Assembly: GCF_030684315.1 (NCBI RefSeq)
Contig: NC_081393.1
Coordinates: 9,621,565 to 9,685,564 of the forward strand
Reading direction: 5' to 3'
Length of the DNA stretch: 64,000 nt
DNA from: Stegostoma tigrinum
Taxonomy: Eukaryota
Both the position numbers and the translations under genes were made by a program. The first letter of the stretch is position 1, and every line of letters starts with the position of its first letter. The notes under the pieces were generated by a model. It did no database searches. It was given only the letters and a program-made list of their open reading frames with translations, and was not told the DNA's origin. Positions 14,101 to 64,000 of this stretch are shown here, in pieces.

Positions 14101-14700
14101 TAAGACTCATTGACAGGAAGTCTTCATGAGATGATTAAGTCTACCTTTCCATTCCAATTTTGCTGGTTTTGCATTAAATTCTCACCAGCTGGTCGGCTGG
14201 GATTTGAACTTTTGACCCGACAACACATGAGCTTGAGTCCCTAGAGAAATAGATCAGTGAATCGACCCCTTCTTCCACTCCCATGTTCACAGAATTCTCC
14301 ATTTTATCAACTGGAAATTATCTTGAGACAAAATTCAGTGCTCCCTCAAATACTTCGATTTATCATTCAAGCCAATACGGTACCCAACCAGATAGAGCAG
14401 GAACTTCCAGTATGAACTCAGCCAGTTTTTAGGCGAAGGCCATTAGTGTGATCTAAGCAGATGCAACATCCATAAGTACACAGAAATTGCACGTCAACAA
14501 CCTCATGCATGAACACCAAGATTCTGACATCATCCAAGCAGTTCAGGCCAATGCAGGTCAAACAAAGAGCAGCAAACACAGACTGAGCCTGGGACAGATC
14601 TCACCTGTGTAGCATTACACAGTGAACTCCGTCAACTTAAATACACAAATCTTCCTTCAAGCATTACCAATACAAATGGGAAAAAGATTACAATGAAGCC

Positions 14701-14783
14701 GAGATAACACAGTATAGAGCTGGACGAACACAGCAGGCCAAGCAGCGGAGGAGCAGGAAAGCCGACGTTTCAGGTCGAGATCC
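14701..14783 (-). mobile_element. Single arm of the PLE-derived family
   Basis: GAGATAACAC...GAACACAGCAGGCCAAGCAGC...GACGTTTCAGGTC matches the family arm. Confidence 0.75.
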
Positions 14784-15436: not shown

Positions 15437-16887
15437 GTACCTTTGATGCATCCTCTGTTGTAATCCTGCCTTTCAAAGCACAGCTGGCACTTCTTTTTCT
15501 TAAAATACAGTCTAGAGTAAATATTAGACTTAAACCATACTTTCTTTTGCAATACTCTGACCTCATCCCGACAGTACCAGCAACTACCAGAACTTGAGTA
15601 GTTCACTGTATACTTGAGAGAATTATTTACATTCCGTCATTCTACACCTGTGCCAATCAACTTATTCTATCAGTTTGGTCAAGAGTGAAAAATACATGGA
15701 TATTTAAAGCAACGTGAATAATGTCAGGACAATTTCTAATTTAAAGTTTCAGAAAAAAACTGGTTTTCACACATATGCTCTGGACCTCAGTACCCCATGA
15801 AAAAGAAGAATTTTGGTCATCTGACTCAAAATCACCATTTATGGCTCTGGTGTCAAATTCTATTTTTCTCAATACTTCTTTGTTCTGTATTTCATGACGC
15901 TACTTGTGTGACAGAATTATACCTTGCTGGTTCGATTCCTTCACTTAATTTAACCACCTGGACTCAGTCAAAGATGCCGCCTGAAAATATCAACATTTTG
16001 GCTTCAAATAACTCCTCTTTCAATTCCAAATCAATATTGTTGAATGTGATATCCTTGAGGCAGCCAAGATGTTCAGAGTTGGAAAATAAAGAGAACACAC
16101 CTAGTTGATTCATACAATTTTTCATTCAACCAGTCACCCTGGTTGAGCTTTAACAATCCAGTCCATCATACAATTGGCACAAGTCTTTGTGTAGCACAGA
16201 CATCAGTAAGGCCTCACTGAGAAGAGGAAGAAACCTCTTCAGTAAACAATTCCTTGAACAGCCAACGGGACACACAATTAGGAGGAAGCATGGAACACTC
16301 CTTTTGTAAAGTGTTATAATGGCGCGGATAATCTACTAAACAGCACACACAGTCTTTTAACAGCAGTGTTGCAGGCCAAGATATTCCCAGATACAGAATA
16401 AAAGATAACAAGATTGCTATGGATGGTGTGCCCCAGTAAAAACATTGCCATCCCACTTCCGAGTAGTCAGGTAGAAATGAAAGGCAGGTCGAGAACTGAG
16501 TATTTTAAAACGTCCTGAAATGGATCAGATTTGAAAGAAAAAAAGCCATCTTCTTCAAAGTCTCACACATTCAAAACTCTGATGTCTGCTGGGCCACAGC
16601 CATATGTGCTGCTCCTCCACAAAAGGACCACTCCTCTTATTTGAGCCCAGAAACCAATTCTAGGACATGATTCCATTGGAGGCATTCATGCAACTTTCCC
16701 CAAGTTTGTCTTCAGTCAGAATTTAAGCAAACGTGTCCAAAACAAGTCACTCAGTCATGAAGAGGAGCAAGAACCTTGACTGTGTTCAATCTCCCTTCCT
16801 CAACACAGGGTCAGAGATCATTTGCCGTATCTCAGAGTCAGCTAATCCATATATGGGCTTCCAACCAGACATGAAAACTAATTGTGA

Positions 16888-17134
16888 TCAGAGATAATGG
16901 GAACAGCAGATGCTGGAGAATCCAAGATAACAAAAGTGTGGAGCTGGAAGAACACAGCAGGCCAAGCAGCATCTTAGGAGCACTAAAGTTGACATTTCGG
17001 GCCTGGACCTTTCATCAGAAAAGGGGGATGGGGAGAGGATTCTGAAATAAATAGGGAGACAGGGGGAAGGCGGACCGAAGATGGATAGAGGAGAAGATAG
17101 GTGGAGAGGAGAGTATGAGTGGGGAGGTAGGGAG
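16888..17134 (-). mobile_element. Penelope-like element 3' end
   Basis: Collinear with 62097-62345. Minus-strand core CTGATGAAAGGTCCAGGCCCGAAATGTC at 16991-17018. Confidence 0.85.
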
Positions 17135-20133
17135 GTTGCTCCGGATCATGTCTACTGAAGTATTTTCCCAATAAACCATAAGTGACTCTTGGTTATGCAC
17201 TAAAATTTAAAAGTTTAAGCACAAACTGTTGCCATGGTGCAGTTACTCTTTTTAGAGGGTCTTATTTTAAATGCTAACTTCTAATCAAAGGTACAGGTAA
17301 CTGCAGTTTGAGTTTCAGGCAAGTGCTAGCAATGCACAGTCCCTGCCTCCTTAGAAACCATCAGGGCAACCTTACCTGGTGTACAGTGATATACTGGCAA
17401 GGTATAGATGGCTCTCTCCCAATGGTTATGCAGTGGCAAACTTCGGGCTCCATAAAGATTCAAACTGTGTTTAGTTATGCCAATTACATAACCCGAGGCC
17501 CGTGAAAGATCCCTGCATTCTTTGTAAACCAGGTCTGAAAGATTTTATTTTCACATTGTAGCATCAGAGTGAAGTGCTGAGAAGATCACCTCCAATCTAC
17601 TTCTTGTTACTTCAGTCTTGACTCAGGTCTTGTCATTAACTACCTCATCAGTTCAGAGTTGTTGCAAAACCATCATCATTCCAACTTTCAAGCTAACTAT
17701 CAACAGACTGACAATGTTAACTGCGGCCCTCTACATCGTCTGCCATACCAGGTATGTTTCGCCAGCACTGCTTGTATACCAGAATCTAATTTTTCTTTTA
17801 TTATTATGACTCAAACTGGTGGTGCCCCTACTGGTGAGGTAACATCACTACAGAACATTCAGTAATTCCACATTCCAAAAACAATGTTTCAGCACGACCT
17901 TTTCACAAAAATATCAGTCCAACTCTCAAAAGTTGCCAAATCTCAATTTTATTGCTGGATTATTACAAGATCTTGTAGGATATCTCAAACAGTTAAACAA
18001 ATCCAGTAACACATCAATTTCCAAATTCACTTTGGGCAGCAAATTTAATCTTTTCAGTATCATTCAAGTTTACTTGGCCTGTAAGAAATACTTCTTCTAA
18101 TGGCTGGTTTTGGGCACTATAAATTGTCACTAACATTTCATACAGAAACAAGAATTAATGAATTAAACCTTGGTACGTGGATTTATTTCGACTATCCAAC
18201 ATTAGATTCACTTTTCCAAAAAATTGGACGAAGTCCTAACATCATCTTAAACTGCAATCATCACCAAATCACTCATTAATCAGAAAAGCAAATTGAGGAG
18301 TTGCTTCAACTATTACCCAAAATTTGGAGGTACTGGTTTCAAGAAGTTTCTTTTTCCCTATAACACACTCGTGTATAACGCCTATCACTGCGACCCAAAA
18401 GACTGCATCTTCACAGTGGATAATGAAATGATAAATGTTAATAAAATATATGACAGCTAAAGCACACAACCTACTTAAAAAACAATAAGCTGTTGAATTG
18501 TTCTGAGAGGAAAAAATGATCAAGTGGACCACAAGGACCACTTGTATTTGAATGTTAATATGGACAGGCCAGAGATTAAAATATGCCAGTGTCCCATCAC
18601 ATAAACAGGTAGGATAGCAATGCCATGTGCACATCAATACATGTGAACTAAGAGCCATACTTCATTTATTAGAGACTGAATGTACAGGCACTAAAAGCTG
18701 GTGTAAGTACACTTCACCATTAACACTCTCACTTGATTCAGTCAGTCAGTTACACGCTGCCTCTAGGGTGTCCTCCATCCTATCATGTAAGTATGTGTTC
18801 CAGTGAGACGAAGATACTGTTAAAGATGTGACCTCGACTCAACCTGTCCTTTATCCTCACGTCTCACTTTGTCCTGCAAAGGTACCACACGGTCAAGCCA
18901 AGACAATATCTTCACCCAAAACACCAAAGGGCAAAAATCATCGGTATCCTTGCAGACATCATGTCTCAAGCCAGGAGGTCTCCCAATTTTAGAGGCCATC
19001 CAATGTGACATGTTTAAGAGAGCTCAATTCTAAAGGAATTTTTATTTCAAGGAATTTCACACACCCGACCCTATGGGCAGATTGGTTTCAATCTCAGCAC
19101 CAAGCTAATTTCTCAAATTTGTTTGTTTTGTACACACATTTGGTGGAGTTCAAATATTCACTCTTCCGATCATCACCAGGAATTCAGCCTGGCATCACAC
19201 AAAGCACCCTCCAACAAAACCCAACTTTAGCAACAAATATCATCGACAGGTCAAGGAATTATATAGTACAACTACACAAGTCAATGTTTTACAACAAATG
19301 GAATTACAGTACCTGCATACAGAAACACAATGCTCTATGTACTGTCCTGTCATTACGACCAACAGTTAATGCTGAAACACACAAGTTAGTCACCCAATAC
19401 ATCAGCTTGCAAATTCATCTGAAACCCTGTAATCAACCAAGAGAATCAAAAATATATGATCTCTTTGGAAGCCTCTTCTTTTATTTGGCCTAGCATCTGC
19501 AGCAAAAAGCACAAAATCTGCCACTTCTAAATGATCTGAATGCCAATACTTAGGTTCATTCAACGTGTGCAAAAGGCAAACTTGGGGGAGCAGTGACTAT
19601 CTATCAAGCAAGAAGTAATTTGATTAGCACAGTAAACATTTCAGTTAAAACCTGCTTTACTTCAATTCAACTTCAACTGAAGCCAGACTGTGTTGCTGAT
19701 CAGTCAAATATGAAGTGTAAAATCACAAACTATTGGAAAGTGGGTATGTTTTATGCTAGATTAAAATCTAACAACATCGATGATATAAATCTGATTCATG
19801 AACTTCCTCCCACCTTTGATGAACACATCCCACCTTATAAATACATACAAGAACAGACACATTTAAGGGGAACATCCTGCAATCCCATTCATTCCCAAAT
19901 AATTCCTGTCATGCATCAGCTGAACCTTCCAAACCATTTGCTACCATCAGGGAACTGCAGACAGAAAAATCCACCAGCAAAACTGACACTTGGTTGACTG
20001 TTCCAACATAACATCCATACAAAAAGTGCAGACAGCAACAAAAGCCAGGGATTTCCGGGAGGTGGGGGGGGAGGGGGTGCAGCAGCAAAGAGATAATAAC
20101 TTCAGGAAATATAAATATTTTGCTTTGTTTTAC

Positions 20134-21989: not shown

Positions 21990-23560
21990 GCACAGTGACA
22001 GGATCAGACCAAGTCAGCATGGATTTGTGAAGGAGAAATCATGCTTGACAAATATATGTTGAAATTCTATGAAGATGTAACCAGTACAGTTGACAAGGGG
22101 GAGCCAATCGATGTAGTATATTTGGACTTTCAGAAAGCGTTTGACAAAGTCCCACATAAGAGAACAATGTGCAAGATTAAAGTGCATGGGATTAGGGAAA
22201 GTGTATTGAGACGGACAGGAAATTGGGTGGGAGACAAGAAACAATTAGATGGAATTAATGATGAGATAACAAGGCGCGGAGCTGGATGAACACAACAGAC
22301 GAAGCAGCATCCGGAGAGCAGTAAGGCTGACGTATTGGGCCTAGACCCTTCTTCCTGTCTAGGGTCTCCGCCCAAAACGTCAGCCTTCCTGCTCCTCTGA
22401 TGCTGCTTGGCCTGCTGTGTTCATTCAACTCCGCACCTTGTTAACTCAGACTCTACAGCAACTGCAATTCCTACGATCTCTGAAACAGGAGGAACGAACT
22501 GGTCCTTTTCAAATTAGCAGGCAGTAACAAGTGGGGTACTGCAGGGATCAGTGCAGCAACCCCAGCTATTCACAATATATACTAATTATTTGGATGAGGA
22601 AACAAAATACATCTCTAAGTTTGCAGATGATACCAAGTCAGGTGGCAGGATGAACTGTGACAAGGATGCAGAGATCCCTCAGCATGATCTCGACAGGTTG
22701 GATGAGTGGGCAAATCAATGGCAAATGCAGTATAATTCGGATAAAGTCAGGTTATTCACTTTGGAAGCAAAAACAAGAAGGCAGATTACTACCTGAATGG
22801 CTGTAAGTTAGGAGAGAGGGGAGTGTGCAACCAGACCTGGGCATCCTTGTGCACCAGTTGCTGAAGGTCAGCATGCAGGTACAGCAGGCTGTAAAGAAGG
22901 CAAATGGTATGTTGGCCTTCATTATGAGGGGTTTCGAGTACAGGAGCAGGGATGTGCTGTAGCAGTTATACAGGGCTTTGGTGAGACCACACCTGGAATA
23001 TTGTACACAGTTTTGGTCTCCTTTTCTGAGGAAGGATCCTCTTGCTTTTGAGAGAGTGCAGCGAAGGTTTACTGGGCTGATTCTGGGGATGGTGGGTCTG
23101 GTCTATGGGCAGAGATTGACCTGGTTAGGATTGTTTTCGCCGGAGTTCAGACAACTGAGAGTCGGGTTGGGGGTGAGATCTCATTGAGACTTAGAAAATT
23201 CTAACAGGACTGAACAGGGTAGACGCAGGGAGGATTTTCCCCATGCTGGGCGTGTCGGGAACTGAGGTCACTGTATGAGGATTTGGGGTAGACCATTTAG
23301 GATGGAGCTGAGGAGATATTTCTTCACCCAAACAGTGGTCAGCCTATGAAATTCATTACAACAGGAAGTAGTTAATGCTAAAACATTGAATATATTCAAC
23401 AGGCTATGAGACACAGCACTTCGAGCGAATGGGATTAAAGGGTAAGGGGAGAAAGTGGGATTAGGCTTTGAGGTGGACGATCAATCGTGATCACGAACAG
23501 CAGAGCAGGCTCAAAAGAACCAAATGGCCTCCTCCTGCTCCTATCTTCCATGTTTCTATT
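21990..23560 (+). mobile_element. CR1/HER1-type LINE, RT region to 3' end
   Basis: VDKGEPIDVVYLDFQKAFDKVPH, ISKFADDTK and VRPHLEYCTQFWSP motifs, followed by a 3' tail. Confidence 0.92.
22263..22482. mobile_element. Fold-back PLE-derived short element inserted in a CR1 LINE
   Basis: GAGATAACAAGG...CCTTGTTAACTC inverted arms with the tail on the right. It interrupts the CR1 RT frame. Confidence 0.82.
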
Positions 23561-30120: not shown

Positions 30121-30218
30121 ATTCTGATGAATGAACACAGGACTCTAAACATCAACTCTGTTTTACTCTCAACAGATGCTGCCAAACCTGCTGAGTTTCT
30201 CCAGCACTTCGTTTTTAA
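30121..30218 (+). mobile_element. Older, second PLE-type terminal fragment
   Basis: CTGATGA...AAACATCAACTCTG...CAGATGCTGCCAAACCTGCTGAGTTTCTCCAGCA. A reverse-complement relative lies at 63910-64000. Confidence 0.55.
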
Positions 30219-40149: not shown

Positions 40150-40440
40150 CGATTGAAAGAACTGAATGGCTTGCTCTGCCATTTCAGAGTCCACCACACT
40201 GCTATGACTCTGGCATCGCATGTAAGCTAGATAGGCGAAGACAGCAGATATCCTTCCCTGAAAGACATCAGTGAACCAGATACAATTTCCTGACAATCAA
40301 TAATGATTTCATAGTCTTCATAAATTCTTAAATCCACATATTCTGTTGAGTTCAAATTCCAGCATCTGCTGCAGCAGGATTCAAACTCAGGTCCCCAAGA
40401 TATGAGGTGATTTTCTGTATTAATAATCTAGCAGTAATGC
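40150..40440 (-). mobile_element. tRNA-derived SINE (second family)
   Basis: Reverse complement of the same motifs (TTCCCTGAAAGACATCAGTGAACCAGAT, GGATTCAAACTCAGGTCCCCA). Confidence 0.55.
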
Positions 40441-40768
40441 TAGGCTGTGTTGCTCAATTTCCCTGTAATAGCACACTTCATTCAAGCTTAATTCTTCATA
40501 GGTGACTTCACTCTAGTGTTGGATGGCTATTCAACTGTCCAAACCCTGAAAACATGGCAAATCCTCCCAGCTGTCATGTCCACCTTGAGTAAATGCAACT
40601 CGGCAATGAGTTAGAGCCAAGGCAGTTTCTTATTTAAAAATGCATCAAAAAGGCTAAATTTACCTTTCATTGAGATCAATTGCCTACCCATCAATCAAAC
40701 AACTAACCAGCAGTATTCCTCCTGGAACTGAATCAGAGACGAAGTACATAGTGTTTGAAGTCAAATCT

Positions 40769-42584: not shown

Positions 42585-43125
42585 GGGAGGTGATGTCCTA
42601 GAGTATTATCACTGAACTGTTAATCGAGAGACCCAAATAGTGTTCTGGGGAAGTAGGAACTGCAGATGCTGGAGAATCTGAGATAACAAGGTGTAGAGCT
42701 GGATGAACACAGCAGGCCAAGCAGCATCAGAGGAGCAGGAAAGCTGACGTTTCAGGCCTTGACCCGAAAGGTCCGAAACATCAGCTTTCCTGTTCCTCTG
42801 GTCCTGCTTGGCCTGCTGTGTTCATCCAGCTCTGCATCTTGTTATCTCTAATATTCTGGGGACCTGGATTTGAATCCCACCATGGCAGATGGTGGAATTT
42901 GAATTCAACTTCCAAAAAGTTCTGCAATTAAGAATCTAATGATGAGTATAAAACTATTGTTGACTGTTGGAAAATCCCCTTTAGGGAAAGAAGCTGCCAT
43001 CTTTACCTGGTCTGGCCTACATATGATCGCAGACCACAGCTGTTGACTCTCAACTGTTCTCTGGGCAATTAGGGGTAGACAATAAATACTAACAACACCC
43101 TCATCCAGTGAATGAATAAACAAAA
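42585..43125 (+). mobile_element. tRNA-derived SINE (second family), interrupted by the fold-back element
   Basis: Shares GAATCCCACCATGGCAG, TTTAGGGAA.GAA, ACCTGGTCTGGCCTACAT and a GCAATTAGGG...CAATAAAT tail with copies at ~2110-2470, ~33365-33715 and (minus) ~40150-40440. Confidence 0.7.
42652..42848. mobile_element. Fold-back PLE-derived short element inserted in a SINE
   Basis: Arms 42680-42759 and 42769-42848 are inverted; the tail is on the left only. TSD TA(G/A)T(G/A)TTCTGGGGA at 42638-42651 and 42849-42862. Confidence 0.85.
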
Positions 43126-43204: not shown

Positions 43205-44592
43205 GGATTTTGCCCATGCCTCCAACTGATCTACATCCTGTTGTATCCTCTGACAATCTCTCTTACTATTCACCACTCCATCAATCTTTATTTGTCTGTA
43301 AACTTACTCATTAGACGAGCGACATTTTCATCCAAAGCATTTACATAGATCACGAACAGCAGAGGTTCTAGCACTGACCCCTGTGGAACACCACTATTCA
43401 CAACACTCCATTCTGAAAAACATCTTTCCACTGCTGCCCTGTCTCCTATGATTAAGTCAGTTATGTATCCATCTTGCCAGTTCACCCCGATACCATATAA
43501 TTTCACCTTTTGTACCAGTCTGCCTTTATGGACCCTGTCAAAAGCTTTACTGAAGTCCAGGTAGACAACATCAGCTGCTTTTTCATCATCAATCGTCTTC
43601 ATCACCTCCTCAAAATATGTGATCAAGTGAGTGAGGCGCAACCTCCACGACATAAAAACATGCTGTTTAGTGCTGAATCCATCCATTTGCTTCTAAATGC
43701 CTGGAGATCTTGTCCCAGAGAATCTTTTCCAAAAATTTCCCAACCACCAATGTGAGGCGCACAGGCCTGTAATTTCCTGGATTGTCCTTGTTACCCTTTC
43801 TAAACAATGAGACGACGTTAGCTATTCTCCAGTCCTCTGGGACATCACCTGTGGCTAAGGAGGATACAAAGATATCTGTCAATGCTCCAGCTATTTGTTC
43901 TCTTGCCTCCCTCAATATTCTGGGATAGATCCCATCAGGACTCGGGGACTTATCCATCTTAATACTTTTTAATTAATACAACACCTCTTCTTTTTGATAG
44001 CAACTTGGCTGAGAAATTCAAAACTACCTTCCCTGAGATTGTCCTCCACCAATTCCTTCTCTTTGGTGAATACCAATACAAAGTATTCATCTAAGTACAC
44101 ACGCACCTCTTCTGGCTCCACGTATACATTCCCTCCTTTGCCAGTGAGTGGACCAACCCTTTCCTTGGCTACCCTCTTGCTTTTCAGGTATGTACAAAAT
44201 GCTTTGGGATTCTCCTTAATCCGGTTTGCTAACGACTTTTCATGACCCCCTTTTTACCCCTTCTAATTCCTTGCTTCAGTTCCTTCCTACTTTCCTTGTA
44301 TGCTTCAAGAGCTTCATCAGTTCCCATCCCCCTAGACTTTACATATGCTTTCTTTTTCTTTTTGACCAAGGTTATAACATCCCCGGTCATGCAAAGTTCA
44401 TATAACTTGCCAAACCTATCTTTCATTCTTGCAGTAATGTGCTGGTCCTGAACTCTTATCAACTGCCGTATGAAATACTCCTCTATGTCCAATATGAATT
44501 TACCCGCAAACAGCCACCTCTAATTAACACACATCAGTTCCTGTCTAATATTGTTGCAGTTCACCTTCCTCCAATTTAACACCTTCACCAGA
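43205..44592 (-). mobile_element. CR1-type LINE ORF2 fragment
   Basis: DKSPSPDGIYPRILRE, PEDWRIANVV..F.KG....PGNYRPV.LT, DVVYLDFSKAFD and SGVPQGSVL.PLLF. Confidence 0.92.
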
Positions 44593-45064
44593 GGAAATAA
44601 GCCTGTGGTTCACACGTGTTTGAAGAAACATTTTGTCAATACGATCCTTCTCTCCACAAGGTGTTCTTCTGCAAAACACACCCTTTTCTCCACGGACTGT
44701 CCATTCAATTGTTCTAACGGCTCCCACTCAGTTCCCTCCCTTTTGGTTGGGAATGGTGGGGCAGAGTTGGGAGGAGAGGGTGTACATTCTGTTACTCATG
44801 TTTTTCACTTGCAGAGTTCACTGTACCACATTTAAAATCTGGTCTGATTCAAACACAGTGAGGTTACACTTCCCATGAGGATTTTCACCACTATTCATAG
44901 GAAAGAGTTCTGACAGAACAAACCAATTTCCAAATGGCTGTTGGTGTGGAACAGATTTTGGGAAATTAGATATTAATGTGATGAAGCCATAATATATGAC
45001 TAATTATTCAGATGCCCAAAGTAACATTCTGGGGATATTGAATTGAACCCCGTCCAGCAGATGG

Positions 45065-46500
45065 TGAAACATATCTGGTGATACAGAAAATTTCCAAGGC
45101 ATTCCTTGTCCACATAGAACAGGAAATTTCCAACCTGGCCAATGACCAGCCAATCGGTCTACTCTTTGTTATCAGCAAAGTAATTGAAAGAGTTGTCAAC
45201 AATGCCATCAGCCGGAACCTAATCAAAAATAACCTGCTGACTTGTGTTCCATTTGGATTTCATTAGGTTGACTCAATCGCTGATCTATGGGTGAAAGAAC
45301 CGACTGCCCTTGACATCAAGGTGGAATTTGACCAAGGGTGATGTTAAGAAATGCGAACATTACTATATTAAATAGGATTCAGGTCGGGGGGAGCTGTCCA
45401 TTGGTTGAAGTCATATCAAGCACAAAGGAAAATGGTTGTGGATCTTGGAGATCGGTCATCTGAGCTCCAGGAAGTCGCTGCATAAGTTCCTGAGGGGAAT
45501 GTCCTTGATCCTAACTTTTTCAGCTGCATCATCAACGACCTTTCTTCCATTATAAGATCAAAGATGGGATGTTTGATGATTGTACAATGTTCATCACCGT
45601 TCCCAATCCTGAGATATTTGAAGTGTCCAAATGTAGCACACTTGTACAACATTCAAGGTTAGGGTGACCGGTCTTGTCTACATGTAGCACGATCTGGACA
45701 ATATCCAGAGTTGGGCTGATATGTGGCAAGTAATATTCATGCCAAATAAGTGCCAAGAAGTGGCAATCTTCAACAAGGGAGAATCTAATCATCACCCTTT
45801 GGCATTCAATGGCAATACCATCACTGAATATCCAACTATCAACATCATGGGTTACCATTTCGGAGAAAATGAACTGAAACAGTCTCGTAACTATTGTGGA
45901 TATCAGAGCAGCATCACAGCAGTCTAGGTGCAAAAGATGGACTATTGTGTCTGCACCAGCCCTTCAAAGGAACATCATTACCTACTGCCAGTGTCCTGCT
46001 TTTTTCCCATATTTTTGTGTCTTATTTCTACACAAGTAATCTTCCAGAACACAGTTGCAGAACAGGTGAGACACTGAGAATTACGCAGCATGTAATTCAA
46101 CTCTTGACAACTCAAGCCTGTCCACAATCGCTGAGGCACAAGTCAGGAATGTGATGCAATCTCCACTTGCCTGGATGAGTGCAGCTGCAATATTCAAGTA
46201 ATTCAAAAGCATTCAAAATAAAGCAGTCCACTTGATTGTCATTCAACAATCACTTCCTCCACCACTGACGCATACTGGAAGCAGCGTTTACCATCTGCAA
46301 GATGCACTGAACAGCACTGCCACAATCTTCTGACAGCATCTTCCAAACTTGCAATCTCCACCCTGAGAAAGTAACGTGTAACAGATGCATTGAAACCACT
46401 AAGTCCAAATTTCCTTTCAATACACACACCTTCCTGACCTGGAAATTGTAGCTGTTCCTTCACTGAGAGTGGTTTAAAGTGCTGGAAATGTCTCCATAAC
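45065..46500 (+). mobile_element. Second LINE family RT fragment, decayed
   Basis: SNLAN..PI.LL.VISKV.E.VVN, ALDIK..FD and WQVIF.PNKCQ motifs. Same family as 35695-37800. Confidence 0.78.
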
Positions 46501-48117: not shown

Positions 48118-48505
48118 ATCTGATTTGATTTATTGTCACATGTACCTAAATCCAGTGAAAGGCTTTGTTTGTGAACAGTACAGGCAGATCATAGTAAGCA
48201 AGGACACACAGATCATACAGTGAAAAAAAACTTGGAGAGAGTGAGACAAACAGGTTACACCACACAGGCAATGTGCTGGGCAAGATCAACATTAACAGGA
48301 TTATCATTATTTGAAGTTAGAGAGACCATTTATAAGTCTAATAATGGTAGAGAAGAAGCTGTTCTTGAACCCACTGGTGCATGTGTTCAACCTTTTGTAT
48401 CTTCTGCCTCATTGGAAAAGGTTGTAGGAGAGCATTACTGGGGCGGGGTGGGTCTTCGATGATGTTGGCCAGCTGTTCTGTGGCAACAAGACCCGTAAAT
48501 GAAGT
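48118..48505 (-). mobile_element. Probable Rex1/Babar-like LINE 3' fragment
   Basis: Microsatellite-like tail (GATTT)n-ATTGTCAC and an AAGAAGCTGTTCTTGAAC block; family assignment from recall only. Confidence 0.45.
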
Positions 48506-48522
48506 CTTTTTAGGCAGCTGTG

Positions 48523-48732
48523 ATAATGGGAACTGCAGATGCTGGAGAATCCAAGATAACAAAGTGTAGAGCTGGATGAACACAGCAGGTCCAGCAGCAT
48601 CTCAGGAGCACAAAAGCTGACATTTCGGGCCTAGGCCCTTCTCTGATGAAGGGTCTAGGCCCGAAACGTCAGCTTTTGTGCTCCTGAGATGCTGCTTGGC
48701 CTGCTGTGTTCATCCAGCACTACACTTTGTTA
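48523..48732. mobile_element. Fold-back (palindromic) PLE-derived short element with intact hammerhead-like core
   Basis: Arms ~48554-48641 and ~48648-48735 are reverse complements. TSD TCTTTTTAGGCAGCT(G/A)TG at 48505-48522 and 48733-48750. Confidence 0.88.
48643..48670 (+). ncRNA. Minimal hammerhead ribozyme-like motif
   Basis: CUGAUGA-A-GGGU(CUAG)GCCC-GAAA-CGUC: conserved core boxes, 4-bp stem II, loopless palindromic stem III (ACGU) and a GUC cleavage triplet. Stem I is only ~2 bp, so activity is unproven. Confidence 0.6.
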
Positions 48733-51700
48733 TCTTTTTAGGCAGCTATGTAGTTCTATTTGTTCCTTAAAGATCTCATACAAGCACGATGGGCGAGATG
48801 GTGATCTGTGCCTGAATACTCCACATCTCAAAAGAGAAGTTATCAGGATTCTCAACACTGATCGCAACAGTGATAAGTACTTTAAAGCTACTGGCCATAA
48901 ATGCTTTGGGATATCCCAAGGTAGTGTAAGAAGTTGGAAAACTGCAAGTCTCTTTTCACGTTTGGCTGCAGATTGCACGTGTGAGCCCCAGAATTGAAAG
49001 CCAACGAATTCTCGCAATATCGGAACAGCACTTGGCAGCTCCCGAATCTATTAGCTGAGGGCAACACGGCGCGAAGCATCATTTGGAAAACGAGGAGGGA
49101 TGATACCCTTGGAAAAAATACCATTGAATAAAAAGACGCAGATCTCGACCACAGCGTGGCGCTCTTCATCCTCAGTAAGTGCGCTGTTCTTTTTCAAACG
49201 CCTCCTGTGGGTTTCGGGAGGTGCAACATCTGCTAAACAAAGAAGCCCAGACGCGAGTTGACATTGATTTGAGGGGAGAGTTAACCCATGGTGTAATATT
49301 GCCTGCAAAAGCGCCAGAAAAAGTCAATGAAGTGCAAGCACGAATTAGAGTGGCGCTAAATCACCGGACATTAGAGTCCTGAGTTTAGAAAACTCCACAT
49401 GCTGCCTGAGCTGCAGGTGTGTATCTCGATGTAAAAATTTGTTAATGTATGAGCCAGTCTCCTGTGTTTTTTTTCTGGCTATTAATTCATGTATCATCTT
49501 TGTTCAGGAAATGTTCGCGATGCTACAGTGTTAGAAATTCAACGTCAATCATCTTTGATTTCATCATTAAAGCAGGAGACGGGGCGGTAAATCCGAGCCC
49601 TGTCTGATGTTACTAATTTGTGATAGTTTTGCTGTTAAACTTGTTTGATTATGGCTGGCGCAAATATTGAAAATCAACCCGAGTTGGGGGTGTGGGAGTG
49701 TTGTTTGACGTTGGTGGGGTGGAGAGGGTGGTGGAAGTGGGAGGGAGAATGGAATTGACACAGACTTTGGGAAGAGGGAAATGCAAAAGGTATATGAAAA
49801 GGTGCTTCAATAAATGTGTGTGATGTCGATTACACGAACCGTAACACAATAAGTCTTGATTCCAAGCCGAGTATCCTGTGAGGCAGAATAATCAGAACAA
49901 AGTTGGTTGAAATCACGGCAGGAAAATAAACAAGACATTCCAGCCCCTTTTAAAAATCGTAAGCGGGAAGTAAATGCCTTTTATTTGAACAAAATAAAGA
50001 CACGACCTAAAATTATTAGCAGGTAATTCATGGTATTGGGATTTTTTTTTCTGTCTGCATTTTTGCCGTCTCTATCATTATGGATAATGAGGAAGGGGTG
50101 ATAAATGTCGGGGCGGGGGCGAGAAGGCCAGGTCGTTTTGCGAACTTTGAATCTCCCATATCCAACAAAAAGTAGCGTGTATTTTCCCGAATAATTACCG
50201 GATAAATAAATACTTCATTGACAGATTCAATGAGTTCAAAAACTGTGTGTGAGGAAACTTCGCCCCGGGCTGTGACAGAATCTTATCAAGGACAGCAAGG
50301 GGTCCAATTATCCCTCGCAGTTTTAATATTCAGAGTTTCTTATGGGATATAAACTGCTGCCTGCTAATTGTCAGAGTGCATGTAAATACATGATGATTAT
50401 TAAGGGGGAATGATTCAATCAATCTGTTTATCTACACCACCACCGCCTCCTCCCATCCCACCGCCTACCGTCTGCTCAACGTGTGTATGTGTAAAACCCG
50501 AAGTAAGGTCCTTGATTCCAGCTAAAAACGTGCATTTTATGTGTCTTCTGACCTGGGGCAAAATAAAAATCATCAGACCAACACTTCATCACTGAAGGTT
50601 AGGGAACCAAAAGTACCACAAAATGAGTGTAAAAGCCGAGATCAGGCGGACTGCAGCAAGCATTTTGAATTCGTAGATTCTTGGTGATTCTGCGTATGAC
50701 TGCGAAGCCCTCGCGATTCAGAATGTACTTCGTTCTTCCTCTTGATTTAAAAAACACCTTGCAGAACCGACTTCACTAAAGTATCTGGAAATTTTGAAAG
50801 TGGCCAGGATGGGCTGACACGAGAAACGATACCGACTAAGTACAAGTTAATACAGAAAAATTCAGGTCAGAGCGATCAGCCATTGTATGTCCTTCTGATT
50901 TTCGCGGCGTTTTATTGTTTGGGAGCAGAGAGTAGAGTGGGATTAGGGAACAAAAGCGATCTGGATTTGGTAAATCCATCAATAAGAGAAAAAGAAACTA
51001 AAACTCTGAATGGAATTGTCATACGTTGACCGGGGGCGCTGCGCGGTGTATGTCCCCATGTCAGTTGTTAAATTATAGTAATGTTAATTGATATTACACG
51101 AAAAATCTCAAACTACTGTCAAACGGGACACGGTACTGTATAAACTTGTATCTGTTTAATCTATTTAATGGTCTGTGTATTTGGTGTACACTCTGATGTA
51201 TGTAAGGTTTCTTTTCCTCAATGCTGAATAAGAGTTTCCATCTGATAGATTTCATTACTGCATCATCCCTTTTAACAAGCTACGCGATACTTCCTTTAAT
51301 CCCTGGTTCATCATGTGCCACCTCTGCTCTGCCGTTTATCCGTACAGCTATCAAACATGCTATCGTGTGAAACCCTTGATCATCATACGATACACTAATT
51401 GACGAAACTGACCAAAGCAGCAGGCTCTGGACACCAAAAGGCGAAGCGGGGAAGACGCGAGATCAAACCTCGACTCGCAAACAAAACTGAGTTTTCGAAG
51501 TCTGTAGATTTCAGATTTAAAAATGAAAAGAGACGGGGAGGAAACAGCGCAAGAGACTTAACAACATATTTGACCTATCTAAAAAACGTACATACATATA
51601 TAAAATATGCGCATATATGACATTGAGATTGACCATACAGACATATTGTGGAAAACAGTGTAGTAATCTTCTCACTTTCAAAGGACAATACAAGATATTT

Positions 51701-53724
51701 AACCAGATTATCTAGAATCCTTTCGGTTTTTTTTCCAGTTCTTTCGGTTTTAACCGGCACTATACATCTGGTCTGGATCATTATTATCAGGATCTTCAAA
51801 CAGTTACCGTGTGGCAGCTGGCTGGGCCTGGCCAGGGTGACAGTGGTCTGACCCGGCTGAATGCTCGCTGCCCCCGGGCAATGGCCCGCGGACAGACGCT
51901 CCCTTCAGACCTTGGGCTCTGGCGCACGCCTTGCTATTGTCCTCGGGGCCTCAGACTTCGCAGCAACGGAAAGATTTCAATACGGGCAGGAAGGGGACGG
52001 GGAGGGAGGGACGGAGTCGATTAGCATTCTCCACACCCACGGCACAAACAGACAAATCTCATTGAAAACCGCCTTCAGATGGCGGCATTTTAACTATTAT
52101 TTAAACAATGACTAAATTCAACTGATTACTTTCAAGCAGATTACTCACCACTTGGTCGCAGCTGTCATGTTATAGGACTTCACTCCAGTGTCTAATCTCA
52201 CAAACAGTGCACTCACCAGCCAGATCTAACATGAGAATTGCAAATAATATCTGGATCAAAGCAACGAAGAACTGTTCAGCAAAATTGTCGAATTGCAATA
52301 AATTAAATATTACAGATAATAAACGAGCATTTGGATGATGACTATATGGGATAATGGGGATTGTTCCCATTTCTAATATGTTTACCCATTTCGGATTTCA
52401 GAGCCAAAAAGGTCACATTTAATTTACAGGTCAGAGTTTAACTTCGTTTGTCTCAACATTGTTTTTACCACTGCCAAATTAATTTATTTTCTTTTCAAAA
52501 CTGCGTTACATTTCAAAATGAAACAATCAATTCATAATTCTCGAGGAAGCACGACAGCAACAATTTAACCGTGTGAAAAGTAGTTTTCCAATACGGATGC
52601 AATTTGCTGAATGGTATGTTTAGTGTTTATAATGATTCACCTGGTAAACAGACAAGGAATTCACGCCTCAGTTGCATGTTAGGATTTGGGAAACTGATCG
52701 TCCTTGAATCTCCTCTGTTTTTGCAAGGGAACATTGTTGACTAGACAACTTTCCACCAGTTTTACCAAGATTCGTTCAATCAGAAATCGTTAATCTATCC
52801 TGTGATTCTATAACTCCGGCAATTACTGAGAAAAAAATAAATCTGCTTTGGTAATTCTCTCGCCCTTTTAATAACTGTGCGACTGAATCATCAATCTATT
52901 TTCATAAAAATGAAAATCAGTTTAAGAAAAATATAAACAAGCAGTGTTTGTTCTAGGTTATCATGTGATATATTTTATTGAAGGCGGACATAAATTATTT
53001 TTACGTTATTCCCCGAGCTCTTCTTGGATGACCATGCCTTGCACTCAATTAGTTGACTTCCGTCCAAAAATATTGTCTGGATCTGTACCTTTAAGAGATC
53101 TGGGTAACAGCTGAGGGTCGCTCCGGCAGATGGTCTGTGAGCGGAGTGTCATTGTTTCTCACTAAATCTGTTTGCATACCAAGCGTCTCCCCCGCCCTTC
53201 CACCACCGCCCCCAACCCCCGCTAAACAGTCTCACGAACGTCTCCCGTTCCTTTTTCGAAAGCAAGCAAAAAAAGACAAATGGCCATACTAAAAACAAGG
53301 CAAGGATAAACTCACTTCCTAGTGCAACAGTTAGATTCAAAATGTTAACGAACAGAGCCTTCAAATCGTGATGCAATAAATAAATAGATCAGATGGAAGC
53401 GATCGGATCTCTCGGTTAAGTGGTCCTATCTCCATTGTACAAACCATAGGTTCAAGTCTGTTCTGATGCGTGGGAATCGTGACAAATGATTTTGATGCTT
53501 TTTTCGCCAAGTAGCAAACTAACATCGGTAACAGACACCAAGCCGAATGCTTGTGCGTGGCCTTTTTGGACCATGCAACGAATCAACATCGGAGCCAAGC
53601 TCTTTTGAAAAGCATAACATTTCTCCTCGGGTTTGCTCCAGTTAATGTGTTTTTCTACCCAACGTGTAAAAAACAACACAAATCTCGAATATCTGGCAAG
53701 TACTTTTCAGTGAAAAGTTGATTC

Positions 53725-53863
53725 AAATCAATACAGCGTGGAACTGGAGGAGCACAGCAGGTCAGGCAGCATCAGAAGGGCAGGAGAGTTGACGTTTCGG
53801 GTTGGCACCCTTCATCTGTCCTAAATAACTCGAACTCCAGTGTCCGCAGTTCTTGCTGTCTCC
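53725..53863. mobile_element. Diverged PLE-derived short element (inverted arm plus tail)
   Basis: Minus-strand arm with GATGAAGGGTGCCAACCCGAAACGTC followed by a plus-strand tail. Perfect TSD AAAAGTTGATTC at 53713-53724 and 53864-53875. Confidence 0.78.
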
Positions 53864-54624
53864 AAAAGTTGATTCGAGTTAATTACATTGACGAACTTCA
53901 TTGTATGACAACTTTCCAAGAGGTGACGATGTGTAAAAAAAGAGGGAAATTAATATTTTAAAAAACCAAAGAACTGTGATGCTGGTAATCAGAAACATCC
54001 CTTCGGAAATTAGTATTCACACTACAATACTGAAGAACACAGCAATGACATGCCTTTCCTGATATAAAATTACGATAAAGGATCAATAATCACTGAACCT
54101 AAGTATATGACATTGAGAAATTGTATGTCATCATAAAGGATATATAATGTTTCATGATTATAACGTTCAACGAATATTAAAGAAAAATTAAAATGGATTG
54201 TTGTCGGCGGAAATGAATTTACAAAATACGTAGTCCTTCAACAACTTAGTCCTGGTTCGGGAAGGGATTGTTTTAATCGGAAACTTCGGAAGTAATTCTT
54301 AGAATCACTTTCCTTTTGGGTTGATTTAATTTTGTGAAGACGTATATTGGCAGGTGACGGGAAGTGAAGGGGGTGAGATGAAAGGAGTTTATTGTCAGGC
54401 TGAAATCGGCGTCAAAACCATTTCACGCAACTTAATCGGCACCAGGTTTGTATTGGCTTCAACTAAATAATTTTCGCCATCAGTCGTGGAGTCAGAAGGG
54501 CATCGTGGTGAAACAGAGTGAATTACAAGATTAACAGCAACTAGACCCAAAGGAATAGTTACCCGAGAAGATATCGGAAGAAAAGACAGAGAAGTATAAA
54601 TCTGAACGCAATGTATCGCGTGAC

Positions 54625-59515: not shown

Positions 59516-60087
59516 GTAAGTCAGCCCCGAAAATCATGCGATCGGCCAGCGCAATCTGTCCCTTTAAAATATCTGGGGTAACTGCTTGAATTTGCGCTGA
59601 ATTGCTTCCAACGCAATTCTGAGGGCGACCGGTAAAGAGCGAACTGAAGAAAATGAAACAATCCGGTTAAGCGCGGGCTGCAGCTCCCAGAAATTGCACA
59701 GCTTGTTAACATAAGTTATTTCAAAACATACAACTCAAATTATTTCTAACTCTGTCCAATCATTCAGTTGAATGTACATTTAGTGTCACTGCAGCGATTG
59801 GCCGAGCGAAATTTAAATTCGTTCAAAACCGACTTACTCGCACATAGTTAAAATCGATTCCAACTTTGCGTGGACAGGGAAGTTTTCGAAATGCTAACAA
59901 CCATTCGTCCATTAATAAAACAAATGGCGGGAGGTCCCCTTTGCTTCACGTGCACAGATTGAAAGAGATTACAATTTCCTTACAACACAGAGCGCCTGAG
60001 AAACGGACTGCAAAAAAAATCAGGGGCACTCGTCAATCTATCAGAATAACTCTTTCTTAGCACGGTATATTCAAAACTATATAACAT

Positions 60088-60771
60088 TGTGGCTTCCTCT
60101 ACATTGGGGAAACCAAGCGGAGGCTTGGGGACCGCTTTGCAGAATACCCACACTCGGTTCGCAATAAACAACTGCACCTCCCAGTCGCGAACCATTTTAA
60201 CTCGCCCTCCCATTCTTTAGAAGACATGTCCATCATGGGCCTCCTGCAGTGCCACAATGATGCCACCCGAAGGTTGCAGGAACAGCAACTCATATTCCGC
60301 TTGGGAACCCTGCAGCCCAATGGTATCAATGTGGACTTCACCAGCTTCAAAATCTCCCCTTCCCCCACTGCATCCCAAAACCAGCCCAGTTCTTCCCCTC
60401 CCCCCACTGCATCACAAAACCAGCCCAGCTCGTCCCTGCCTCCTTAACCTGTTCTTCCTCTCACCTATCCCCTCCTCCCACCTCAAGCTGCACCTCCATC
60501 TCCTACCTACTAACCTCATCCCCCCTCCTTGACCTGTCTGTCCTCCCCGGACTGACCTATCCCCTCCCTACCTCCCCACCTGTACTCTCCTCTCCACCTA
60601 TCTTCTTTTCTCTCCATCTTCGGTCCGCCTCCCCCTCTCTCCCTATTTATTCCAGAACCCTCTCCCCTATCCCCCTCTCTGATGAAGGGTCTAGGCCCGA
60701 AGCATCAGCCTTTGTGCTCCTGAGATGCTGCTTGGCCTGCTGTGTTCATCCAGCTCCACACTTTGCTATCT
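60088..60771 (+). mobile_element. Penelope-like retroelement, 5'-truncated: GIY-YIG endonuclease C-terminus plus 3' UTR / pseudo-LTR
   Basis: Frame 60088-60447 reads CGFLYIGETKRRLGDRFAEY...PVANHFNSPSH...RRLQEQQLIFRLGTLQPNGINVD, typical of PLE GIY-YIG. Followed by a C/T-rich UTR and a hammerhead-like core at 60679-60706. Confidence 0.88.
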
Positions 60772-61206
60772 GTGATAAATAACAATGCTTGTTTCAGCCA
60801 TCTTTTTTTTCCAACGAAGACTCTATCTCGTAAGTTAGACAAAGGACAGCCAGTGGACATGACCTATGTAGATTTCTAAAAGACCTTTCACAAGGTGCCA
60901 CAAAGACGGCTGTGAAATAAGATAAGAGCCTATGGTGATAAAAACCAAAAGAACCTATGATGCCCAGGGTAAGACACAGATATGGATGGAGGACTGGCTG
61001 ACTGGCAGAAGGCAGGCAGTTGGGATAAAGGGATCTTTTTTCAGGATAGCAGCCAGTGACCAATGGAATTCCTCAGGGGTCAGTGTTGGGATCACAATTT
61101 TCATATTAAAGATTTGGAGAGGGAACTGAGGGCATTGTTGCTAAACCTGCAGATAGGTGGAGGAATAGGGAGTACTGAGTGTGCAGGAGGGTATGGAAAG
61201 ATTTGG

Positions 61207-61377
61207 TTCAGAGATAGTAGGAACTGCCGATGCTGGAGAATCTGAGATAACAAGGTGTAGAGCTGGATGAACACAGCAGGGCCACGCAGCATCAGAAGAG
61301 CAGGAAACGTCAGCCTTCCTGCTCCTCTGAAGCTGCTTGGCCTCCTGTGTTCATCCAGCTCTACGCCTTTGTATCTC
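61207..61377. mobile_element. Fold-back PLE-derived short element inserted in a CR1 LINE
   Basis: Inverted arms meet at GGAAACGTC. TSD T(A/G)TGGAAAGA(T/C)TTGG at 61192-61206 and 61378-61392. Confidence 0.85.
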
Positions 61378-62096
61378 TGTGGAAAGACTTGGACAGGCTA
61401 GGAGAGTAAGTAAAATAGTGGGAGAGGGAATACATGTGGGAAAGTGTGAGGTCATGTGAGAAGAATACAGGCAAAGACTATTTTCTAAATGGGAAAAGGC
61501 TTTGCAAATCTGAAGCACGAAGGGGCTTGGGAGTCCTCATTCAGGATTGTCTGAAAGTTAACATGCAAGTTCAATTGGCAGTTAGAAGGCAAATGCGGTG
61601 TTGGCATTCATTTTGAGAGAGCCAGAATACAACGCCAGGGATGTACTGCTGAAGCTGTATAAGGCTCAGAACAGACTGCATTTTGAATATTGAGAGCACT
61701 TTTGGGACCGGTCTCTAAGAAAGGATGTGCTGGCCCCAGGAAGGAGCCCAGAGGAGGTTCACAAGAATGATCTCAAAAATGTAGAGGAGTTTGTTGTGTT
61801 AGGAATGTTTGAGGACTAGTTCTGTACTTGATGAGTTTAGAAGGATGGTGGGGAGGGGATGGAAGGCCTGGATAGAGTGCACATGGAGAAGATGTTGCCA
61901 CTAATGGGAAAGACTGAGATGCCTCAGTGTGACAGGATAATCCTTTTGAACTGAGATAAGGAGGAATTTCTTCAGCCAGAAGGTGGTAACTCTGTAGAAT
62001 TCATTGCTGCAGTTGGCTGTGGGATACAGACAGGTAGGTTCTTGGTTAATAAAGAAATCAAAGGATACTGAGAGAAAGCAGAATGGGGTTGAGAAA

Positions 62097-62778
62097 GAGA
62101 GATAATGGGAACTGCAGATGCTGGAGAATTCCAAGTTAATAAAATGTGAGGCTGGATGAACACAGCAGGCCAAGCAGCATCTCAGGAGCACAAAGGCTGA
62201 TGCTTTGGGCCTAGACCCTTCATCAGAGAGGGGGATAGGGGAGAGGGTTCTGGAATAAATAGGGAGAGAGGGGGAGGCGGACCGAAGGTGGAGAGAAAAG
62301 AAGATAGGTGGAGAGGAGAGTACAGGTGGGGAGGTAGGGAGGGGATAGGTCAGTCCGGGGAGGACAGACAGGTCAAGGAGGGGGGATGAGGTTAGTAGGT
62401 AGGAGATGGAGGTGCAGCTTGAGGTGGGAGGAGGGGATAGGTGAGAGGAAGAACAGGTTAAGGAGGCAGGGACGAGCTGGGCTGGTTTTGTGATGCAGTG
62501 GGGGGAGGGGAAGAACTGGGCTGGTTTTGGGATGCAGTGGGGGAAGGGGAGATTTTGAAGCTGGTGAAGTCCACATTGATACCATTGGGCTGCAGGGTTC
62601 CCAAGCGGAATATGAGTTGCTGTTCCTGCAACCTTCGGGTGGCATCATTGTGCCACATTGTGGCACCTCTCCCCTATCCCCCTCTCTGATGAAGGGTCTA
62701 GGCCCGAAGCATCAGCCTTTGTGCTCCTGAGATGCTGCTTGGCCTGCTGTGTTCATCCAGCCTCACATTTTATTATCT
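62097..62778 (-). mobile_element. Penelope-like retroelement with inverted terminal segment and perfect 13-bp TSD
   Basis: 62097-62652 is the minus-strand 3' end including the tail; 62667-62778 is an inverted copy of the terminal repeat. Flanked by TGGGGTTGAGAAA at 62084-62096 and 62779-62791. Inserted in a CR1 3' end. Confidence 0.9.
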
Positions 62779-62944
62779 TGGGGTTGAGAAACCATGGTCG
62801 AAGGGGTGAACAGACTTGATGGGCTGAATGGCCTGATTCTGCTCCAATATCTTATGGTCTTATGGTGTCATTTTAAATTAGTTCATCCGTTTGAAAAATC
62901 ATTTTTTTCTCAATTATTAGCTTGAGGTCTTGCATTAGAAACTG

Positions 62945-63548: not shown

Positions 63549-63660
63549 GTACAGAAATTGTTTGCCCTTTCCCCAATATCATCAATGACAAACAGCATTG
63601 CAGAAAACCCGCCAAATTCTTCCGAGATCACTGTTCTGAAAGCAACTTGAATGAAGGTGA

Positions 63661-63721
63661 TCAGAGATAATGGGAACTGCAGATGCTCGAGAATCCAAGA
63701 TAATAAAGTGTGGAGCTGGAT
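63661..63721 (-). mobile_element. Extremely truncated PLE 3' tail insertion
   Basis: Tail plus ~25 nt of arm. TSD AATGAA(G/A)GTGA at 63650-63660 and 63722-63732. Confidence 0.75.
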
Positions 63722-63909
63722 AATGAAAGTGACATGGAAGGTCAGCGGTGTAAGGCCGTGTCTAACCATTTGTCATGATTAAGGTAACGATTATCACAGC
63801 ATTATGCAGATCTCATGAATCACACGTGTGCAGCAGAAGTTCTTACCCATTGAGTGTTGTCATGCAAAGCCAGAACATCAAGCTTAGCCCTGTACTCAAA
63901 TCAGGCGAA

Positions 63910-64000
63910 AGATGGCAGACACTGGAAATCTGAGATAATCAGAGAATGCTGGAGAAACTCGGCAGGTCTGGCTGCGTCGGTGAAAGGAGTAACAGAGTTC
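63910..64000 (-). mobile_element. Second PLE-type terminal fragment (cut by window end)
   Basis: TGCTGGAGAAACTCGGCAGGTCTGGC...AACAGAGTT is the reverse complement of the 30150-30206 motif. Confidence 0.55.

Follow-up and report, generated by a model that had tools for sequence, protein, structure and literature searches.

The insertion at 42638-42862

The window, which is the whole 64-kb stretch of DNA that was analysed, contains a palindromic insertion at 42638-42862. The palindrome is confirmed at 42652-42848 and has arms of 81 nt that are 90% complementary, a 28-nt tail on one side, and a 14-bp target-site duplication (TSD). Arm ends are counted throughout from the predicted cleavage site of a hammerhead ribozyme (HHR) motif, the core of which runs from +1 to +28; they were read by eye and entered by hand. 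The parts of the insertion are as follows.

42638..42651, + strand: left TSD, 14 bp, 2 transitions relative to the right copy (TSD scan)
42652..42679, - strand: 3' tail of a Penelope-like retrotransposon (PLE), 28 nt, unpaired, at least 6 nt shorter than in the fullest copies
42680..42765, - strand: tailed arm, the PLE 3' end, subfamily B, ending at +20 (5' edge of hammerhead stem II)
42766..42768: junction, about 3 filler nt belonging to neither arm
42769..42848, + strand: inverted tailless arm, starting at +14 (loop of stem II)
42849..42862, + strand: right TSD (TSD scan)

The hairpin folds at -85.6 kcal/mol (z -18.8), a value equalled by none of 200 shuffles. The 14-bp TSD has 2 mismatches, with 9 exact. 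A host-repeat paralogue at about 44980-45069 has the target site once, a weak match with a left-flank score reached by 30 of 1000 random stretches. The left flank was not confirmed in a paralogue at 40285-40480, where the score was reached by 140 of 1000 random stretches.

Copies of the family in the window

BLAST and profile searches of the window yield 11 countable insertions with 17 arms, made up of the family and its relatives. Six insertions are two-armed (22263, 42652, 48523, 53726, 61207, and 62098) and five are one-sided (14700, 16884, 60085, 63657, and 30125). The end count leaves aside 63925-64000, a tailed copy that belongs to the more distant family D and is cut by the window edge, a 30-nt match at 17740-17769 (E 0.025), and five nhmmer matches with E above 1. 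Inverted pairs of at least 25 nt within 400 nt of each other occur only four times in the window, and these are the four palindromes: the one described above and three others.

Inverted pair 48553-48736: 89 nt, 94%
Inverted pair 22262-22448: 88 nt, 84%
Inverted pair 42680-42848: 81 nt, 90%
Inverted pair 61244-61377: 37 nt without gaps, 89%; self-BLAST gives 135 nt at 83%

The initial annotation described all four as near-perfect. All of them exist, with arms that are 83-94% complementary, and the wording is generous for 22263 and 61207. Its statement that a tail of about 30 nt lies on one side only holds in the alignment for 6/6 two-armed copies; the complete tail is about 33-40 nt. The remaining insertions are listed here.

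48505..48747: palindromic copy, subfamily A; 15-bp exact TSD; ends +23 (tailed) and +30 (tailless); 2-nt junction microhomology
48643-48670, + strand: the one complete minimal hammerhead core within this copy
22263..22484: older palindromic copy, subfamily B, tail at right; ends +21 and +23 to +26; filler 6-9 nt; lies in a LINE remnant; scan gave no TSD
61194..61392: palindromic copy, subfamily B; TSD 13-15 bp; ends -4 and +8; about 4 nt of microhomology; lies in a LINE remnant
53713..53875: asymmetric copy of subfamily C with a TSD of 12 bp; tailless arm ending at +26; tailed arm of only about 47 nt (end -57); about 7 nt of filler
62084..62791: long insertion with two arms and a TSD of 13 bp; both arms have a mutated core; a small additional fold-back lies at the junction
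62098-62656, - strand: tailed arm of this insertion, about 557 nt, reaching into the GIY-YIG region; the inverted tailless arm is 115 nt and ends at +48
60085..60771, + strand: one-sided tailless copy; C-terminal GIY-YIG coding piece at 60088-60372, 3' UTR, mutated hammerhead core at 60679-60706
16884..17135, - strand: one-sided tailed copy, subfamily A; end +145; minimal hammerhead core at 16991-17018
14700..14783, - strand: one-sided tailless stub; end +20; no TSD found
63650..63732, - strand: one-sided tailed stub of about 65 nt; 11-bp TSD; end -38, well short of the hammerhead
30125..30215, + strand: stub of the more distant family D (nhmmer E 1.2e-7), starting at about the first hammerhead box (about +32, an approximate edge, as there is no longer D copy)

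The family is very abundant, with 82,608 contigs of run X1 aligning to one copy. The tail end and the tailless end have a motif of about 6-7 nt in common (16884-16900 and 16920-16935, and likewise in other copies), and the same sequence may pick both reverse transcriptase (RT) start sites. Decayed LINE remnants lie at 22060-23040, 36460-37280, 38500-39720, 43290-43690 (with an RVT_1 match at 43291-43692, E 2e-9), and 60780-62860. Three PLE stubs lie within LINE remnants.

The copies 60085-60771 and 62134-62656 are inverted relative to each other and 1.3 kb apart. Over the first 505 aligned positions they show 3 differences, and over the last 17 they show 6. With their common mutated core, 60085 and 62098 may go back to a single source lineage, to one complex event, or to gene conversion that did not extend to the end. 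At the junction of the long insertion (62640-62665), an 8-bp fold-back of GIY-YIG-region sequence precedes the inverted arm, which suggests repeated template switches.

Element identity

The arms are almost certainly the 3' end of a PLE. On the sense strand the order is an ORF, a pyrimidine-rich 3' UTR, the minimal hammerhead motif, about 67 nt, the inner end, and the tail. Copies 60085-60771 and 62098-62656 continue upstream into GIY-YIG coding sequence. The piece at 60088-60372 is 91.6% identical to residues 364-458 of whale-shark protein P0001 (tblastn), and no Pfam match was found for this GIY-YIG fragment itself. P0001 has an RT, then a CX4CxxC linker, and then a GIY-YIG domain; its RVT_1 and GIY-YIG matches have E 9e-5 each, with RVT_1 under Pfam's cut-off. 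Of 201 candidates 34 match, and those with names are shark and skate proteins. A 39-nt unit repeated 2.1 times lies directly after the GIY-YIG region (60355-60436), and zebra-shark protein P0002 has a similar repeat in the same place.

An RT with a C-terminal GIY-YIG domain in one ORF characterizes an endonuclease-bearing (EN+) PLE, and subfamily A has this arrangement through P0001. Subfamily B, to which the insertion at 42638-42862 belongs, has no ORF-bearing copy in the window and is tied to subfamily A by 82-88% identity over about 110 nt. The element appears to be of the Neptune type, judging by the linker of the homologue P0001, as the window fragment does not include the linker region. 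The order of RT, linker, and GIY-YIG and the CX2-5CxxC linker motif are defined for Neptune, and Nematis has the same linker (PMC8557442).

Searches with the family DNA gave no match in viral contigs and none in prokaryote genomes. A single match in metagenome data (locus L001) was confined to a 21-22 nt pattern and was dropped as chance. Among the sequencing runs listed for the family, none is an RNA run.

Target-site duplications and empty sites

TSDs were found in six of the ten insertions scanned. They differ in both length (11-18 bp) and sequence, as had been claimed earlier.

TSD of 42652: 14 bp, 2 mismatches
TSD of 48523: 15 bp exact; 18 bp with 1 mismatch
TSD of 53726: 12 bp
TSD of 61207: 13 bp; 15 bp with 2 mismatches
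TSD of 62098: 13 bp
TSD of 63657: 11 bp

In the null for the scan, a score of at least 8 occurs in 4/300 random position pairs and a score of at least 10 in 0/300. The scan found no TSD for 14700, 16884, or 22263, and the candidate for 60085 is at chance level (reached by 36/300 random pairs). The flanks of 22263 match two LINE paralogues with an overlap of about 18-20 nt, and direct alignment resolved no duplication.

The 16884 copy is missing from a second organism (organism B), in which a contig of run X6 connects 16881 directly with 17136, so that any duplication is at most 3 nt long. Within the window, the LINE paralogue at 38681-39083 is uninterrupted at the 61207 site. The LINE paralogue at 39458-39718 is continuous at the 62098 site, where the two flank matches overlap by 13 nt.

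Because of the variable TSDs, the empty site of 16884, and the uninterrupted LINE paralogues of 62098 and 61207, the copies are retro-insertions and not MITEs. Cut-and-paste MITEs with terminal inverted repeats would share the short hairpin shape and the high copy number. This reading is refuted for practical purposes by the one-sided tail, TSDs that range from at most 3 to 18 bp, the one-sided copies, and the continuity with an RT/GIY-YIG element; the symmetric termini and fixed TSD length of MITEs are absent. The initial annotation was thus right to call the palindromes PLE retro-insertions. Head-to-tail tandem units with complete HHRs, the mark of non-LTR retrozymes, are also absent, with no such array among four Tandem Repeats Finder results. 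The insertions work as EN+ PLE insertions and, by the features tested, are EN+ PLE insertions: they have an inverted 5'-truncated neighbour copy (6/11 insertions), a tail at one end (6/6 two-armed copies), a variable or absent TSD, and an empty site (16884). The window contains no full-length tandem unit of pLTR, ORF, and pLTR.

The hammerhead motif

The hammerhead is a motif by sequence and a putative ribozyme. Core boxes with stem II of a minimal HHR match twice in the window against 0.07 expected, and in none of 100 shuffles. Stem II (4 bp) is 89.6% paired across 12 arms and at most 56.7% when slid, and its loop varies. Helix I has just 2 bp, where 4-5 bp is the criterion for a minimal HHR. 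The covariation score of stem II is reached by 60/500 shuffles. Rfam at gathering thresholds gave no match in the window, and the minimum free energy (MFE) structure of the monomer does not contain the hammerhead (z 0.77, with 150/200 shuffles as good). Most palindromes hold only part of the core and are therefore unlikely to be active ribozymes.

In subfamily A, the first box is preceded, about 25 nt upstream, by a pyrimidine run followed by AG that resembles a 3' splice acceptor (60645-60656, + strand; 17042-17053, - strand). No joint at this site was seen among the best 15 of 55 contig joints. In Drosophila Penelope, an intron ends beside the HHR (PMC4209133).

Where the arms end

Tailed arms end at -57, -38, -4, +20, +21, +23, +145, and +453. 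Tailless arms end at +8, +14, +20, +23, +26, +30, about +32, +48, and +622. Ends between -5 and +33 are found in 11/17 arms (4/8 tailed and 7/9 tailless), or in 7/11 insertions when one arm is taken from each. The initial annotation placed every fold-back point or truncation within or beside the core. The six points that it named do lie there, at different bases. "Every" does not hold, since 6/17 ends are elsewhere: 16884 (+145), 62098 (+453 and +48), 60085 (+622), 63657 (-38), and the tailed arm of 53726 (-57). It had left out the ends of 62098 and 63657 while using their TSDs.

At the level of insertions, the excess between -5 and +33 has P 0.0002-0.0075 under three smooth nulls. A scan statistic for 9/17 ends within 20 nt, which takes the choice of window position into account, gives P 0.00015-0.002 under fitted or broad nulls (0.00015-0.0008 for three such nulls). 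Under geometric truncation with a mean as short as 40-80 nt, P rises to 0.006-0.2. These statistics cover 17 arms in 11 insertions, in which arms of the same insertion are not independent, and the margins of -5 to +33 were chosen after the data had been seen. For this window and this small sample, the enrichment of ends at the hammerhead is probably real.

No end (0/17) falls at the cleavage site; the nearest are at -4 and +8. Ten of the 11 clustered ends lie past the site, by 8-32 nt. Cleavage therefore does not set the ends, and the template at those positions was uncleaved or re-ligated. Further upstream, only 1/17 ends lies between +34 and +144, and 3/17 arms pass +50.

Contig depth was compared along one copy. 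The summed depth upstream of the core is 21%, 23%, 17%, and 6% of the downstream peak in four runs, where depth is not copy number and the noise is at least 3-fold. This ratio is close to the 3/17 arms passing +50, a weak agreement given that upstream alignment may be poorer for other subfamilies. The core itself has the lowest depth, which rises again upstream. There is no pile-up of contig ends among 24 of 1118 loose ends. Loose contig ends at 16973 and 16982-16983 were considered as truncations and instead reflect a subfamily mismatch to the reference.

Three arms (60085 and both of 62098) have a common template-level mutation of the core and its palindrome, and all three read through (+622, +453, and +48). 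Of the 14 arms that do not have this mutation, 11 stop in the core. The contrast comprises two insertions, perhaps from one source, and is therefore an anecdotal hint of a structural stop.

Independent origin of the junctions

Junctions differ in 6/6 two-armed copies over three subfamilies, including 3/3 in subfamily B. The palindromes therefore formed independently, as the initial annotation had proposed among its alternatives. In this window, the inversion was very likely made anew at each insertion. The two arms of any copy are of one and the same subfamily; in 62098 they differ at 1/66 positions and have private variants in common. Within subfamily B copies, 5, 8, and 11 differences separate the two arms over about 66 positions; the range between B copies is 2-16, so there is no sign of homogenization.

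In four of the six copies it is the tailless arm that extends further upstream (+30/+23, +8/-4, +26/-57, and marginally +23/+21). It is thus longer upstream and yet has no tail, and neither arm was copied from the other. The junctions have 2-4 nt of microhomology (48523 and 61207) or 3-9 filler bases (42652, 22263, and 53726), as end joining would leave.

No high-depth head-to-head junction was found among the best 15 of 55 contig joints, a weak test given the poor alignment of subfamily B near the core of this reference and the tendency of assembly graphs to break at hairpins. Among opposite-strand joints, those with the most support connect the tail end with the tailless end (16887-16890 with 16933-16937), with 42 contigs in X1, 50 in X3, and none in X6 or X17. 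They may represent tail-to-tail junctions, such as would arise when a copy inserts at the end of an existing one, or a reporting convention.

Proposed mechanism

Each palindrome would be one abortive insertion of an endonuclease-bearing, Neptune-type PLE. The endonuclease would nick both target strands with a variable stagger (TSDs of at most 3 bp up to 18 bp). Each 3'-OH would then prime reverse transcription on the element RNA, with the outer start site giving the tailed arm and the inner site giving the tailless arm. The two truncated cDNAs would be joined head to head through microhomology or a few filler bases. This course of nicking, two primings, and head-to-head joining is likely by analogy with in vitro work on lizard Poseidon. 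There, the protein cuts and extends both strands, two RT start sites define the tail, and a dimer is predicted (PMC11167929). Taken together, the PLE 3' end, the inversion at each insertion, the two primings, and a real end bias make up a reasonably probable account.

Both cDNAs would tend to halt about 75-130 nt in. The barrier could be the hammerhead in its folded, uncleaved state, perhaps formed by two RNAs as a dimer. Most products would then be MITE-like stubs of about 200 bp, and read-through would give longer copies. A structural stop at the hammerhead is the preferred cause of the end clustering and the weak link of the explanation, and we hold it tentatively, at somewhat less than an even chance. 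The MFE fold that omits the hammerhead, the 2-bp helix I, covariation not above shuffles, and the missing Rfam match speak against such a barrier. A more specific form, in which the hammerhead acts as a structure and not a cutter, two RNAs pair through the palindromic core on a dimeric RT-endonuclease, and both cDNAs stall and join there, is unlikely. In vitro, HHR mutants insert normally and cleavage is dispensable, in an element (Poseidon) of another clade (PMC11167929).

Several other causes could place the ends near the motif. An RNA 5' end close to the motif could set them, with the ribozyme a neighbour and not the cause. Poseidon offers a precedent in internal initiation, a likely promoter in the pLTR, and 5'-shortened RNA that gives shorter products (PMC11167929), and the near absence of ends from +34 to +144 is what such an upper bound predicts. 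The ends nevertheless range from -4 to +48 without an upper limit that recurs, and a start site would have to sit at one position in each of four subfamilies, which makes this cause improbable. Ribozyme cleavage, with RT running off the 5' end of the cleaved RNA, was one form of the initial annotation's proposal. Clustering within the motif and the one end at -4 would suit it, and the positions of all the others relative to the cleavage site leave it scarcely credible; in the Poseidon element, too, no RNA reads were found to end at that site (PMC11167929). A re-ligated circular RNA may have been the template. Longer inverted insertions could later have lost their centres through deletion of unstable palindromes, in keeping with the microhomology at 48523 and 61207 and with microhomology deletions reported in PLE copies (PMC3846280). 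Such loss would not be expected to place the ends of four subfamilies at a fixed position in the element, or to yield one-sided or lopsided copies ending there (14700, 53726, and 30125). Three junctions carry filler, and the long inversion at 62098 persists, so centre loss is highly improbable.

The inversion itself has been explained by fold-back, which is proposed for head-to-head PLE repeats (PMC3846280): a single cDNA, or an antisense RNA, would fold over at the hairpin, and the first arm would serve as the template for the second. Four of the six junctions are symmetric within 12 nt, and two copies (42652 and 62098, the latter with its small junction fold-back) are compatible with this course. 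The other four oppose it, as each of their arms has sequence that the other lacks (by a marginal 2-5 nt in one), and a simple fold-back of one cDNA is quite unlikely. The second form of that early proposal was a non-autonomous hairpin family, in which PLE proteins copy the transcripts of completed palindromes as whole units. The abundance of the family fits, and non-autonomous PLE derivatives exist (PMC3846280; as tandem retrozymes, bioRxiv 10.64898/2026.07.22.740005). Propagation would leave junctions in common, and the window has none among six; the contig joints, in the weak test above, gave no high-depth junction either. We regard such a family as very unlikely. Two primings with a possible structural stop at the hammerhead remain the preferred reading.

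Significance

A very abundant shark repeat that automatic tools would take for a MITE is PLE debris, which shifts the counts of DNA transposons versus retroelements. Similar hairpins are common in skate assemblies. Thousands of independent shark junctions would record where reverse transcription ends and how second-end integration occurs, and they are countable in any shark assembly. The function of the hammerhead in EN+ PLEs is described as unclear in PMC8557442. If the structural role is true, the motif would be a reverse-transcription stop and joining point, and it would account for the flood of hairpin stubs in sharks. In the literature searched, which mostly did not extend to subscription papers, Repbase, and Dfam, no report was found of shark PLE palindromes or of ends clustered at a PLE hammerhead.

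Comparison with known systems

L1 twin priming is similar in that primings on opposite target strands lead to an inversion joined via microhomology. The second priming of L1 is internal, which leaves two pieces without overlap; the pieces seen here both begin from the 3' end and give a palindrome.

The Poseidon element PAc of Anolis carolinensis also has two RT start sites downstream of the HHR, with the tail between them and both target strands extended (PMC11167929). PAc belongs to another clade and its ORF starts within the HHR, whereas here that frame stops after 14 codons. The available parts of that paper describe neither head-to-head products nor an end bias for PAc. The Neptune clade is similar by protein, as P0001 has the RT, CX4CxxC linker, and GIY-YIG order given for that clade (PMC8557442).

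Minimal hammerheads of metazoan PLEs agree with the motif in their two core boxes, in one additional base ahead of stem II, and in palindromic positions that replace helix III (PMC4209133). The motif described here differs in its 2-bp helix I and 4-bp helix II, and most palindromes hold a partial core. In Schistosoma, opposite-strand pairs of minimal hammerheads lie close together (PMC4209133). Non-LTR retrozymes are likewise short non-coding PLE-derived pieces with a type I HHR, found in a chondrichthyan; they are head-to-tail tandems with whole ribozymes, in contrast to the head-to-head stubs with broken cores in the window (bioRxiv 10.64898/2026.07.22.740005).

EN+ PLE insertions with an inverted pLTR and a tail consist of a tailed 5'-truncated copy and an inverted truncated copy placed head to head, with a tail of 30-40 nt at one end, a variable or absent TSD, and an HHR in the terminal repeat (PMC3846280, PMC8557442). 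The palindromes share all of this. They differ in that both copies are cut to 75-130 nt, leaving a bare hairpin, and in the concentration of ends in the hammerhead, which the available descriptions do not mention (PMC3846280, PMC8557442). The palindromes are the smallest form of the textbook PLE insertion; the architecture is already known, and the end bias is the sole fresh point.
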